64,000 bases of DNA, taken from NCBI GenBank assembly GCA_963795385.1, contig CAWCHK010000014.1:362113-426112 (forward strand), written 5' to 3'. The stretch's first letter is position 1. Each line of letters opens with the position of its first letter. Shown here piece by piece: positions 32,961 through 38,698 of this stretch. Both the position numbers and the translations under genes were made by a program. Origin of the DNA: an uncultured Actinomycetota bacterium. Its GTDB lineage: Bacteria; Actinomycetota; Actinomycetes; Actinomycetales; CAVURS01. Under the pieces are notes generated by a model. That model searched no databases. It was not told the origin of the DNA and was given only the letters and a program-made list of their open reading frames with translations.

Positions 32961-33269
32961 TCAACGCGGGCCAAACTTGAGCGTATTCCGCTCAACTTCG
33001 AGGCGCGAGACGGTGAGGCCGTGGGCCGCGGGGCCCTGCAGCAGAGCACCGGACAGCGGGTCGAACTCGCTGCCGTGGCAGTTGCAGATCAGCACCCCGT
33101 CGGCGGCCAGCTCGCCGTCCGCGGTGAAGGGGCAGCTCGCGTGCGGGCAGCGGTCCTCGGTCAGGACCCAGCCCTGCGCGGTGCGGATCGCGGCCATCGC
33201 GGCACCGTCCACGTCGACCGCCACGATCGCCCCGAGGGGAGCTCCGGCGTCGACCTCGTCGAGCTTCAC
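32961..33269 (-). CDS. Rieske [2Fe-2S] domain protein
   Basis: 102 aa with CPH (RCPHASC) and CxCH (CNCHGSEF) ligand motifs. The GTG start is 4 nt after the P450 stop. Confidence 0.85.
   Translation of the reverse strand: MKLDEVDAGAPLGAIVAVDVDGAAMAAIRTAQGWVLTEDRCPHASCPFTADGELAADGVLICNCHGSEFDPLSGALLQGPAAHGLTVSRLEVERNTLKFGPR
32976..32996 (-). promoter_or_regulatory. HAIR-like HspR operator upstream of clpB
   Basis: CTTGAGC-gtattcc-GCTCAAC, matching the CTTGAGT-N7-ACTCAAG consensus. It is 62-82 nt upstream of the clpB ATG, inside the 3' end of the Rieske ORF. Confidence 0.7.
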
Positions 33270-33273
33270 CGGC

Positions 33274-34467
33274 TCACACGTCCCAGACGACGGGCAGGGT
33301 CTTGGCGCCGCGGACGGCCCACCCGTGGACGTACGGCGGCTGGTCGGGGTCCAGCCGCAGGCCGGGCAGCCGGGCGAACATCTCCTCGATCACCACCTGC
33401 CCGAGGGTGCGGGCCACCGAGTGCCCGACGCAGAAGTGCGTGCCGTACCCGAACGACACGTGCGGCTGCCGGGCCCGGTCGAGGTCGAAGAGGTCCGGGT
33501 CGTCGAAGCGCTCCGGGTCGCGGTTGGCCGACCCGATCACCAGCGCGACCTCCGTCCCGGCCGGGAAGAGCAGGCCACCGAGCTCCGCGTCGGTCCGCAT
33601 GACCTTCTCGGTCATGCCGAACGGCGCCAGCCAGCGCAGGCCCTCGTCGATGGCGCGGGCCGACCAGGCGGCCGGGTCGGCGGCGACGCGGGCGGCCTGC
33701 TCCGGGCGGCCGAGCAGCCCGACCAGGGTGTTGGCGATCCCGTGCGCGGGCTCCTGGAACCCCCCGACGATCAGCACGCCGATGCTGCCGATCATCTGCT
33801 CGATCGATCGGGTCCGGCCCGGCGGCAGGCCGTCGTGCAGCAGGTGCGAGATCGCGCTGTCGTCGGGCGCCGCGACCAGCTCCGGGAGGCGGCGCTCGAG
33901 GTAGGCGATGACCTCGGCCTTGGCCGCGCGCCCTTGGGCCGCAACGGTTTCGCTCCGGCCGAAGTCCACCAGGTAGGCGCCGTAGAGCTTGAACCAGCGG
34001 GAGAGAGTCTCGTCGTCGACGTCGGTGAAGCCCAGGACGTCACCGACGGTCCGCTGGCTGATCGGCTCGAGGATCTCGCTGGAGGCCTCGGCCCGGCCGC
34101 GACCACGGACCGCCTCGACGTACTCCGCGGCGACGGCGCGCAAGTGGCTCTCGCGGTACCCCTGGACGGCGCGGGGGCGGAACGGCGGGTTCAGCGCATT
34201 GCGCATCTCCCGGTGCTCCTCGCCGCGCAGGCTGATCACGTTGGGGTTGCCGTAGACCGTGTTGAAGACGTCCTTCGCCGGCTCGAAGACCTCGTCGTTG
34301 TTGCCGGCCTCGTCGCACAGGGCCCAGGTCGTCACGAACACCCGGCCGGCCTGCGGCACCCACGCGATGGGCTGGTTCTCCCGCAGCCACCGGTACGTCG
34401 GGTAGGGGTCGCGCTCGAGCTCGTCCAGGCTGACGTCGTGGACGACCTCCGTCGCGAGCCGGCTCAC
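33274..34467 (-). CDS. Cytochrome P450
   Basis: 397 aa. Heme loop FGYGTHFCVGHSVAR, ExxR (EGLRW) and I-helix VGGFQEPAH. The GTG start overlaps the hspR stop (GTGA, 34464-34467). Confidence 0.9.
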   Translation of the reverse strand: MSRLATEVVHDVSLDELERDPYPTYRWLRENQPIAWVPQAGRVFVTTWALCDEAGNNDEVFEPAKDVFNTVYGNPNVISLRGEEHREMRNALNPPFRPRAVQGYRESHLRAVAAEYVEAVRGRGRAEASSEILEPISQRTVGDVLGFTDVDDETLSRWFKLYGAYLVDFGRSETVAAQGRAAKAEVIAYLERRLPELVAAPDDSAISHLLHDGLPPGRTRSIEQMIGSIGVLIVGGFQEPAHGIANTLVGLLGRPEQAARVAADPAAWSARAIDEGLRWLAPFGMTEKVMRTDAELGGLLFPAGTEVALVIGSANRDPERFDDPDLFDLDRARQPHVSFGYGTHFCVGHSVARTLGQVVIEEMFARLPGLRLDPDQPPYVHGWAVRGAKTLPVVWDV

Positions 34468-34940
34468 TCGGGCCTCCAGACGACGAGGGACCTGCCCGGC
34501 CCGAAGGCCGAGCGGGGCGGGCGCCGACCGCGCGGCACGCTGACGATGTCACCCGAGGGGGCGGCCGTGAAGACCCGGTGCTGCGAACCCGCTGCGAGCT
34601 GCACCCGCTCGACCTGGTCGAGCAGCTCGGAGACCCTGTGCCGCAACGCATCCACCTGCGTCTCGAGCTCGAGGATGCGCTTGATGCCGGCCAGGTTGAC
34701 GCCGTCGTCCTGGGAGAGTCGCTGGACCTCGCGCAGCATGGCGACATCGCGCGAGGAGTAGCGGCGACCCCGGCCGGAGGCCCGCCCCGGCGAGACCAGG
34801 CCGAGCCGGTCGTACTGCCGCAGGGTCTGCGGGTGCATCCCGGCCAGCTGGGCCGCGACGGAGATCACGAAGACCGCGGCGTCCTCGTCGAACGCCGGGT
34901 CGGGTTGCTGCTCCCGGCCGCTGCCCGTCCTCGACGCCAC
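34464..34940 (-). CDS. hspR: Heat-shock repressor HspR (MerR family)
   Basis: The GTG at 34940 is one nt after the dnaJ stop. HTH region FVISVAAQLAGMHPQTLRQYDRLGLVSPGRASGRGRRYSSRDVAML. Last gene of the dnaK-grpE-dnaJ set. Confidence 0.9.
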   Translation of the reverse strand: MASRTGSGREQQPDPAFDEDAAVFVISVAAQLAGMHPQTLRQYDRLGLVSPGRASGRGRRYSSRDVAMLREVQRLSQDDGVNLAGIKRILELETQVDALRHRVSELLDQVERVQLAAGSQHRVFTAAPSGDIVSVPRGRRPPRSAFGPGRSLVVWRPE

Positions 34941-34941
34941 G

Positions 34942-36680: not shown

Positions 36681-38578
36681 TTGTCCTCGTCGACGACCTC
36701 GGCGTCGACCACGTCGTCGTCACCGCCGGCGTTATCACCGGTCGAGCCGCCCTCGGACGAGCCTGCTCCGCCGGACGCGTCCGCCGGGGAGGCACCCTCG
36801 GCGCTCTCGGCCTGCTGGGCCGCGGCATACATCGCCGTCCCCAGCTCCTGGCTGACCTTGGCGAGCGCCTCGGACTTCTCCGAGATCTCGGCCGGCGTCG
36901 CGCCACTGCCGTCCTTGAGCGCGGCCTTGAGGTCGGTCAGCGCGGTCTCGACCGGCTCCCGCGAGTCGGCGGGGAGCTTGTCCTCGTTGTCCTTGAGGAA
37001 CTTCTCGGTCGAGTAGACGAGCTGCTCCGCACCGTTGCGGGCCTCGGCCTCCTCGCGGCGGCGCTTGTCCTCCTCGGCGTGGGCCTCGGCGTCCTTCACC
37101 ATCCGCTCGATCTCGTCCTTCGGCAGCGCGCTGCCGCCGGAGATCGTCATCGACTGCTCCTTGCCGGTGCCCCGGTCCTTGGCGGACACGTGCACGATGC
37201 CGTTCGCGTCGATGTCGAAGGTGACCTCGATCTGCGGGATGTTCCGCGGCGCCGGCGCGATGCCGGTCAGCTCGAAGGTGCCCAGCGGCTTGTTGTCCCG
37301 GGCCAGCTCGCGCTCGCCCTGGAAGACCTGGATCAGCACGCTCGGCTGGTTGTCGTCGGCCGTCGTGAAGACCTCGCTGCGCTTGGTCGGGATCGCCGTG
37401 TTGCGCTCGATCAGCTTGGTCATCAGTCCGCCCTGCGTCTCGATGCCCAGCGACAGCGGCGTGACGTCGATCAGCAGCACGTCCTTGCGCTCGCCCTTGA
37501 GGACGCCGGCCTGCAGCGCTGCGCCGACGGCGACGACCTCGTCCGGGTTGACGCCCTTGTTGGGCTCCTTGCCGCCGGTCAGCTCCTTGACGACCTCGGT
37601 CACCGCGGGCATCCGGGTCGAGCCGCCCACCAGCACGATGTGGTCGATGTCGCCGACCTTGATGCCGGCGTCGGAGATCACCGAGCGGAACGGCGCCTTG
37701 GTGCGCTCGAGCAGGTCGGAGGTCATCTGCTCGAACTGGGCCCGGGTGAGCGACTCGTCCAGGTGGATCGGGCCGTTCTCGGTCATCGACAAGTACTGCA
37801 GCGAGATGTTGGTGCTGGTCGCGGTCGACAGCTCCTTCTTGGCCTGCTCGGCCGCCTCGCGCAGGCGCTGCATGGCGATCTTGTCCTTGGCCAGGTCGAC
37901 GCCGTACGAGTTCTTCACGACCGTGAGCAGGTGGTCGACGACCCGCTGGTCCCAGTCGTCGCCGCCGAGGTGGTTGTCACCGCTGGTCGAGCGGACCTGG
38001 ATCGTGGAGAAGTCGTCCTCGTCCTTGCCGACCTCGAGCAGGGACACGTCGAACGTCCCGCCGCCCAGGTCGAAGACGAGGATCAGCTCGTCCTCCTTGC
38101 CCTTGTCCAGGCCGTAGGCCAGGGCCGCGGCGGTCGGCTCGTTGATGATCCGCAGGACGTTCAGGCCCGCGACCTCGCCGGCCTCCTTGGTGGCCGTGCG
38201 CTGGGCGTCGTTGAAGTACGCCGGCACGGTGATCACCGCGTCGGTGACGGGCTCGCCGAGGTAGCTCTCGGCGTCCCGCTTGAGCTTCTGCAGGATCCGG
38301 GCGCTGATCTCCTGCGGCGTGTAGGACTTGCCGTCGATGTCGACGGTCCAGTCCGTGCCGATGTGCCGCTTGACCGAGCGGATGGTCCGGTCGACGTTGG
38401 TGACGGCCTGGCGCTTGGCGATCTCGCCGACCAGGACCTCGGAGTTCTTGGCGAAGGCCACGACCGACGGTGTGGTCCGGCCGCCCTCGGCGTTGGCGAT
38501 GACGGTGGGCTCGCCACCCTCGAGGACGGCGACCACGGAGTTCGTGGTGCCCAGGTCGATACCGACTGCACGTGCCAT
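36677..38578 (-). CDS. dnaK: Chaperone DnaK (Hsp70)
   Basis: 633 aa, [22 protein letters not shown]...[10 protein letters not shown]...[12 protein letters not shown]. Uninterrupted. Confidence 0.97.
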
Positions 38579-38613
38579 GGGTGATCCATCTCCTGCGTTG
38601 AGGTGTGTACGGG

Positions 38614-38634
38614 CTTGAGTGAACCTGGCTCAAG
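38614..38634 (-). promoter_or_regulatory. HAIR operator 1 upstream of dnaK
   Basis: CTTGAGT-gaacctg-GCTCAAG, 36 nt upstream of the dnaK ATG. Confidence 0.8.
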
Positions 38635-38677
38635 TCTTCGGCGGCAGTCTCACTCATGTCAAACCGGATCGTCAAAT

Positions 38678-38698
38678 CTTGAGTCCACTCGGCTCAAC
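38678..38698 (-). promoter_or_regulatory. HAIR operator 2 upstream of dnaK
   Basis: CTTGAGT-ccactcg-GCTCAAC, 64 nt from operator 1. Confidence 0.75.

Follow-up and report, generated by a model that had tools for sequence, protein, structure and literature searches.

Why should genes for a cytochrome P450 and a Rieske iron-sulfur protein be found in the chaperone operon of an actinobacterium? We examined this question in a 64,000-nucleotide (nt) stretch of DNA from an uncultured Actinomycetota bacterium of soil (assembly GCA_963795385.1, contig CAWCHK010000014.1, positions 362,113 to 426,112; hereafter the window), in which the minus-strand order dnaK-grpE-dnaJ-hspR is continued by a P450 gene and a Rieske gene, with clpB following. 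The reading we lean towards, with modest confidence, is that an operon controlled by HspR through HspR-associated inverted repeats (HAIRs) has been extended by a CYP255-like P450, co-expressed with the chaperones under stress, and by a Rieske protein dedicated to it as electron carrier.

We checked the gene layout using open reading frame (ORF) calls together with Pfam and NCBIfam assignments, and all of the gene coordinates, overlaps and gaps that a first-pass annotation of this DNA had given for the minus strand were correct (Table 1). No gap between hspR and the Rieske gene exceeds 4 nt. The hspR GTG at 34940 lies one base past the dnaJ TGA, the hspR stop overlaps the P450 GTG start at 34467 in the sequence GTGA, and the P450 and Rieske genes are separated by 4 nt, while 46 nt lie between the Rieske stop and the clpB ATG (32914). 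The P450-Rieske cassette thus fills exactly the interval from the hspR stop codon to the clpB operator/promoter. From the dnaK start to clpB we found no terminator-like site, the sole one in 29000-39500 falling within clpB; a scan for promoter and terminator consensus sequences gave nothing useful for the cassette in this high-GC DNA, and an Rfam search of 28-40 kb returned zero matches. Going by gene spacing only, the cassette is probably switched on with the chaperones.

The chaperone part of this arrangement is well known. In Streptomyces, Mycobacterium and Corynebacterium, the HspR/HAIR-controlled dnaK-grpE-dnaJ-hspR operon and clpB share with the window the same gene order, the HspR equivalog, and two HAIRs at dnaK plus one at clpB. 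The window differs from these operons in that a P450 and a Rieske gene are added after hspR with almost no spacer, and in that the clpB operator lies inside coding sequence. It had been suggested in the first-pass annotation that such genes in an HspR operon are not part of the described picture, and our literature search likewise found no account of them.

The three HAIR-type inverted repeats were found at precisely the coordinates first claimed. With up to 2 mismatches allowed, the HAIR palindrome matched 5 times in the window where shuffles gave an expectation of 1.0, and 0 of 100 shuffled sequences reached 5. Across approximately 640 kb of related loci, matches to a relaxed HAIR pattern were almost confined to the dnaK and clpB regulatory positions; a canonical-HAIR scan (up to 3 mismatches) had missed the clpB sites of the relatives, which were revealed by alignment and the relaxed pattern. 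Upstream of dnaK, both HAIRs, the GGAAT-N16-GGTTG element and the hexamer TTGACA are all invariant in the relatives, where the 64-nt spacing of HAIR1 and HAIR2 is also conserved; in five of them the GGAAT and GTTGAG of the upstream element are unchanged. The pattern GGAAT-N17-19-GTTG occurs in the same 640 kb only upstream of dnaK and upstream of clpB. The consensus for SigH/SigR promoters is (G/T)GGAATA-N16-19-(C/T)GTTGAA (PMC3489674), and both TGGAATC-N16-GGTTGAG (dnaK) and CGGAATA-N17-CGTTGAC (clpB) fit it, as a match of sequence only. In Corynebacterium glutamicum, dnaK is served by two kinds of HAIR-controlled promoter, one recognised by sigmaA and the other by sigmaH/E (PMC10012870), and the window appears to share this combination of a housekeeping and a SigH/E-type dnaK promoter. 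Elsewhere, in loci L021 and L023 (9045-9065), the 3' end of a P450 gene unlinked to hspR carries a HAIR-like palindrome with one mismatch, CTTGAGCAGGTCATGCTCGAG, probably a chance match.

The third HAIR precedes clpB and lies inside the 3' end of the Rieske gene, as had been claimed, but it is not peculiar to this locus, being the usual clpB operator of Actinobacteria. The spacer of this HAIR contains GGAATA, and CGTTGA follows 17 nt downstream, the two matching the SigH/SigR consensus; the CGTTGA (32962-32967) would serve as the -10 of the clpB element and includes the Rieske stop codon. When the Rieske/clpB junctions of five relatives were aligned, about 35 bases were invariant, AAGTTGAGCGGAATACGCTCAAC-TTTG-N5-CGTTGACC, and the flanks were divergent. 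A metagenome scan for TTGAGCGGAATNNGCTCAA identified 120 stretches, and in 40 of these clpB starts less than 400 nt downstream. Those 40 clpB genes are 45-78% identical to that of the window and the SGTTG box is usually present; none has a P450 or Rieske gene upstream, and hspR is upstream in one (L083). The composite element precedes clpB in diverse Actinobacteria (L053, L063-L065, L077, L078, L083, L087, L090, L125, L134, L144, L151, L154, L167 and others). Judged by its sequence, then, the clpB element is an ordinary, ancient and widespread actinobacterial operator/promoter that has been overprinted by the Rieske frame. Because it is an ordinary composite HAIR/SigH-type operator, clpB would have a promoter of its own; control of clpB by SigH plus HspR was reportedly described in C. 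glutamicum by Ehira and colleagues in 2009.

The overprinting has left a mark on the protein. Codons ~91-102 of the Rieske gene (32961-32999), which specify the tail (E)VERNTL(K/N)F..R, in the window (E)VERNTLKFGPR, and the stop, are encoded by operator/promoter DNA. Of 38 Rieske homologs, approximately 32 carry this operator-encoded tail, VERNTLNF, at identities as low as ~61%, and it is missing from Rieske homologs in other gene contexts. It follows that the linkage of Rieske and clpB is of long standing and frequent in metagenomes, and conservation of the tail apparently stems from constraint on the DNA and not from protein function.

To ask how widely the cassette occurs, species-representative genomes were scanned with an alignment of the P450, yielding 35 loci, nearly all in soil metagenome-assembled genomes (MAGs) plus two Leucobacter genomes. 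The order dnaK-grpE-dnaJ-hspR-P450-Rieske(-clpB) was also present in L003/L005 (an Actinomycetales MAG), L004, L033, L036 and L039, the last found by way of its Rieske protein. A survey of related dnaK-hspR neighbourhoods had been proposed as the check on this arrangement, and it established that the insertion recurs in at least five other genomes and is not unique to one assembly. The hspR-P450 junction is always tight, ranging from a GTGA overlap to ~27 nt (L003, L004, L033, L036), with a 4-nt overlap by called genes in L039. In genomes with intact copies, the P450 had a ratio of nonsynonymous to synonymous substitution (dN/dS) of 0.16-0.20 and the Rieske gene one of 0.46-0.48. The nearest named relatives of the window HspR are those of Thalassiella, Angustibacter and Quadrisphaera.

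Family assignment of the P450 by sequence comparison, also among the checks proposed at first pass, gave a CYP255-like enzyme. It aligned end to end with SyoA (8u09; E 2e-90, 41.2% identity over aligned columns) and with GcoA (5ncb; E 1.6e-79, 38.1% identity over aligned columns), and this 38-41% identity is borderline for membership of the CYP255 family, for which the criterion is >40% and the nomenclature committee makes the decision. The I-helix Gln-Glu pair, Q238-E239, was invariant in 16 homologs, as was Cys346, and the segment GGFQEPAHG aligned with GAMQEPGHG of GcoA and GGLQEPGHQ of SyoA. Val231 and Gly235 align with identical residues in GcoA (Val241 and Gly245), and Thr286 aligns with a position that we take to be GcoA Thr296. 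In SyoA and GcoA the Gln-Glu pair replaces the acid-alcohol pair, and peroxide-shunt and monooxygenase activity both depend on it (PMC11842817). The residues that clamp the substrate in GcoA, Phe75, Phe169 and Phe395 (PMC6021390), correspond to Tyr72, Tyr165 and Val385 in the window P450. Because this Phe triad is changed, the substrate is probably a small aromatic compound, not necessarily guaiacol.

The P450 differs from GcoA, AgcA and SyoA in its surroundings. Those enzymes are encoded in a catabolic setting beside a multi-domain reductase of the GcoB, AgcB or SyoB type carrying flavin adenine dinucleotide or flavin mononucleotide (FAD/FMN) and a 2Fe-2S cluster, whereas the window P450 is in a stress operon beside a 102-residue Rieske protein. 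The longest homologs of the P450 (up to 478 residues) matched PF00067 only and gave no evidence of a P450-Rieske fusion. Four loci without a Rieske gene (L011 5229-6392, L015 2204-3379, L022 842-2008 and L024 2437-3609) carry another P450 3-7 kb from the main one, a distant paralog with 33-38% identity to that of the window.

Do the P450 and the Rieske protein work together? Members of this P450 clade have a Rieske gene directly on their 3' side in many gene neighbourhoods unrelated to one another (L001, L002, L006, L009, L010, L012, L013, L025, L028, L030 and L040-42), and wherever the Rieske gene is present it is immediately downstream of the P450. In orthologs of the P450 that are 53-58% identical (L026, L031, L032, L038), a small CTGIGxCE-type iron-sulfur ferredoxin takes the Rieske slot and there is no Rieske gene; two Leucobacter loci (L032 being Leucobacter soli) also add a ferredoxin reductase. 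Because of this recurrent adjacency, and because a ferredoxin takes the same slot in distant orthologs, the Rieske protein is most likely the electron carrier of the P450. The P450-Rieske pairs of L040-L042 (Rieske 54% identical) were found beside a gene of the F420H2-dependent quinone reductase family and several GFO_IDH_MocA oxidoreductase genes, a setting that may be catabolic.

The arrangement resembles class I P450 systems, in which the gene for a small iron-sulfur protein is directly 3' of the P450 gene, and departs from them in having a Rieske protein for the ferredoxin and an unlinked reductase. Partners of CYP255 enzymes are already borrowed from systems of the Rieske-oxygenase type: GcoB is BenC-like (PMC6021390) and SyoB resembles phthalate dioxygenase reductase (PMC11842817). 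The first-pass annotation had predicted an unusual partner, a Rieske protein rather than a ferredoxin. It is indeed a Rieske protein that adjoins this P450, but such a partner already has a biochemical precedent, since in vitro the P450 DoxA functions with SpFdx4, a Rieske-type ferredoxin, and SpFdR3 (PMC12979805). SpFdx4, from Streptomyces peucetius, is encoded in a suf cluster, whereas the Rieske gene of the window is operonic with its P450. Neither a ferredoxin gene nor another P450 gene turned up when the 64-kb window was searched for them.

The predicted structure of the Rieske protein (predicted local distance difference test score 96) has a fold that is closest to ferredoxins of oxygenase systems, with template modelling (TM) scores of 0.76-0.81 to BphA3, BphF and CarAc against 0.55-0.65 to bc1/b6f domains. 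It shares with the ferredoxins of three-component oxygenases (BphA3/BphF, CarAc, TDO-F) a size of about 100 residues, the fold and the Cys2His2 ligands; the motif CPHAxC...CxCHGSEFD is invariant in its homologs and the cluster ligands are kept. Unlike those ferredoxins, it has the extra cysteine pair and CxCHGS box of the bc1/b6f type.

Several observations weigh against the favoured reading, some of them concerning the stress link and others the transfer of electrons. Close relatives with HspR homologs 83-85% identical, L043/L044 and L045, have no cassette, which is therefore not needed for the heat-shock response. In these loci hspR is followed directly by clpB-M50B, with the HD-domain gene next in L043/L044; the same clpB-M50B order, with an HD-domain gene after it, is found in L039, and in L045 the M50B reads as fused to clpB. 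The P450, the Rieske gene and the clpB operator are missing together from L043 and L045. In L043/L044 a 46-nt spacer without a HAIR separates hspR from clpB (L043 4140-4290), whereas in L045 (7400-7450) the stop codon of hspR and the start codon of clpB overlap in the sequence TGATG. Because these junctions differ, the three elements would have been deleted twice, independently. The clpB gene does not adjoin hspR in Thalassiella, Angustibacter or one further MAG.

A dnaK tree was built from full-length DNA sequences only, partial, frameshifted L036 and L039 having distorted a protein tree. The window, L003, L004, L033, L043 and L045 formed one clade with 100% bootstrap support, in which cassette-bearing L003 branched first (80%) and cassette-less L045 was nested with the window, L004 and L033 (84%). 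The cassette was probably gained once, was carried by the common ancestor of the small clade and was then deleted on two independent occasions, as far as a single-gene tree can indicate. On these sequence data the cassette is a selectively maintained yet dispensable accessory.

A rival view makes the cassette an incidental passenger, that is, a mobile accessory unit in a permissive spot after hspR, perhaps expressed from an unrecognised promoter of its own or by weak read-through, its position being unrelated to any adaptation to stress. In this clade the majority of P450-Rieske pairs are found in other places, in many unrelated neighbourhoods and without any HAIR, and the cassette-less close relatives differ by only 5-9% in dnaK; on the dnaK tree, moreover, cassette-bearers were monophyletic in 0 of 100 bootstraps. 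Cassettes outside the hspR context have neither a HAIR nor a SigH-like element, so that stress control would be positional and not a property of the family, and a weak promoter may lie within the hspR coding sequence. Against a passenger, the layout is kept in lineages whose Rieske proteins are only ~61-65% identical, operator-encoded tail included, both genes are under purifying selection, and the cassette begins 0 to ~27 nt after hspR and runs up to the clpB operator without free intergenic DNA, junctions so tight that they leave little room for independent signals. We consider a passenger quite unlikely. Far less probable again is an assembly or binning artefact, in which a chimeric join put a P450-Rieske fragment into the dnaK-clpB locus. 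The window and most of its relatives are metagenome-assembled, and in L033, L036, L039 and L045 frameshifts split dnaJ, clpB and the P450 gene; since housekeeping genes on the same contigs are hit too, these are probably sequencing or assembly errors and not signs of pseudogenes. However, the window, L003 and L004 have unbroken reading frames, and the same gene order and junction types are present in independent NCBI, ENA and JGI assemblies, recurrences by which an artefact is effectively refuted.

The remaining points on this side concern electron transfer. A tblastn search with the Leucobacter reductase found no ferredoxin reductase in the 64-kb window, and none adjoins the other P450-Rieske loci; the reductase could be encoded elsewhere in the genome. 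In 12 of the 35 loci this P450 clade has no adjacent partner at all. SyoA works better on H2O2 than with its neighbouring reductase (PMC11842817), and adjacency is for that reason no guarantee of partnership. The loops of the Rieske protein carry the invariant extra cysteines Cys46 and Cys64 and the CxCHGS box, and loops of the low-potential type, without the disulfide cysteines of bc1, were not found in it. Two extra cysteines and a CxCHGS box are typical of high-potential bc1/b6f Rieske proteins, and bc1 subunits are also its best sequence matches; a high potential, if present, would be unfavourable for reduction of the P450. Together with the invariant Q238-E239 pair, of the kind needed for peroxygenase activity in SyoA and GcoA, and with the SigH/SigR-type, HspR-controlled setting, these features would fit a peroxide-consuming stress pair, in which the P450 is driven mainly by H2O2 through the peroxide shunt, as in SyoA, and the Rieske protein is a higher-potential centre and not the donor for monooxygenation. 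It might then, for example, supply single electrons to oxidised heme intermediates or act as a redox sensor. We regard this alternative as unlikely: the fold and size of the protein best fit the low-potential oxygenase ferredoxins, the ferredoxin that takes the same slot elsewhere, accompanied by a reductase in the two Leucobacter loci, points to conventional electron delivery, and GcoA also uses its reductase productively (PMC11842817).

Under the reading that we favour, HspR would occupy the dnaK and clpB operators at rest. Upon heat or proteotoxic stress, or upon thiol-oxidative stress acting via promoters of the extracytoplasmic function (ECF) type, the dnaK promoters would read through hspR into the P450 and Rieske genes, so that two HAIR-guarded promoters, one housekeeping-type and one SigH/SigR-type, would drive the cassette. 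Translation of the P450 would be coupled to that of hspR, and clpB-M50B would fire from its own HAIR-overlapped SigH-type promoter in the last Rieske codons. The P450 would be an enzyme of the aromatic O-demethylase type, the Rieske protein would pass electrons from an unlinked reductase to its heme, and the pair would demethylate or oxidise a small aromatic compound by means of O2 and Rieske electrons and/or H2O2. That methoxyphenol toxicity should be connected with proteotoxic stress is plausible, if speculative. A bolder proposition is that the dedicated, bc1-looped Rieske protein is the physiological partner of this CYP255-like clade, forming a hard-wired P450-Rieske class apart from systems with ferredoxins, flavodoxins or fused reductases, and that the pair is truly under HspR/SigH control here; we advance it tentatively, as possible but doubtful.

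The coordinates of the features are collected in Table 1. Downstream of clpB the window also has an HD-domain gene, besides the Peptidase_M50B gene. An ArsR/HTH_20-type regulator (38775-39377, plus strand) is divergent from dnaK and is followed by a major facilitator superfamily (MFS) transporter (39041-40672, plus strand); the longest ORFs of the two overlap, and the true start of the transporter is probably further downstream.

Table 1. Genes and putative regulatory elements of the chaperone locus, in window coordinates.
Feature	Position	Strand	Evidence or remark
dnaK	36677-38578	-	PF00012, E 4.5e-239
grpE	36021-36680	-	PF01025; overlaps dnaK by 4 nt
dnaJ	34942-35988	-	PF00226, PF01556
hspR, MerR-family heat-shock repressor	34464-34940	-	NCBIfam NF047375 HspR equivalog, 147.6 bits vs cut-off 105
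P450, CYP255-like	33274-34467	-	PF00067; heme motif FGYGTHFCVG
Rieske [2Fe-2S] protein, 102 aa	32961-33269	-	PF00355; CPH...CNCH
clpB	30302-32914	-	Clp_N, AAA, AAA_2, ClpB_D2-small domains
Peptidase_M50B gene, downstream of clpB	29593-30183	-	PF13398, E 1.2e-58
SigH/SigR-type promoter-like element TGGAATC-N16-GGTTGAG, upstream of dnaK	38695-38721	-	-10 part overlaps HAIR1
HAIR1, CTTGAGT-N7-GCTCAAC on plus strand	38678-38698	unstranded	position conserved in relatives
TTGACA, -35-like hexamer of housekeeping-type promoter between HAIR1 and HAIR2	38657-38662	-	invariant in 5 relatives
Candidate -10, AAGACT	38633-38638	-	18 nt downstream of TTGACA; putative assignment
HAIR2, CTTGAGT-N7-GCTCAAG	38614-38634	unstranded	overlaps candidate -10
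Composite clpB operator/promoter	32962-32996	-	HAIR3 32976-32996 with SigH/SigR-type -35 GGAATA in 7-nt spacer

Already known are the operon with its HAIRs and dual promoters, the clpB operator and, at the level of families, the P450 and Rieske-type ferredoxins. What is apparently undescribed is the operonic module of a CYP255-like P450 and a Rieske protein, its conserved insertion between hspR and clpB in a clade of uncultured Actinobacteria, and the extension of the Rieske frame across the clpB operator. The finding places non-chaperone, enzymatic cargo in an otherwise stereotyped actinobacterial dnaK-hspR operon, and since sister lineages with and without the cassette exist, it offers a clean natural experiment. 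The tail VERNTLNF carries a lesson for annotation, being a protein sequence apparently conserved through operator/promoter DNA. More broadly, a putative two-gene P450-Rieske module appears to be widespread among relatives of the lignin-aromatic demethylases, enzymes whose biotechnological interest lies partly in their unusual redox-partner needs and use of H2O2. If a small Rieske protein suffices as partner, it would be a compact electron-transfer component; if it is instead a high-potential centre, the pair would carry out P450 chemistry not yet described. Should the stress control proposed here hold, an aromatic-demethylating and/or peroxide-consuming heme enzyme would form part of the response to proteotoxic and oxidative stress in these bacteria, for instance by detoxifying methoxyphenols that damage membranes and proteins.

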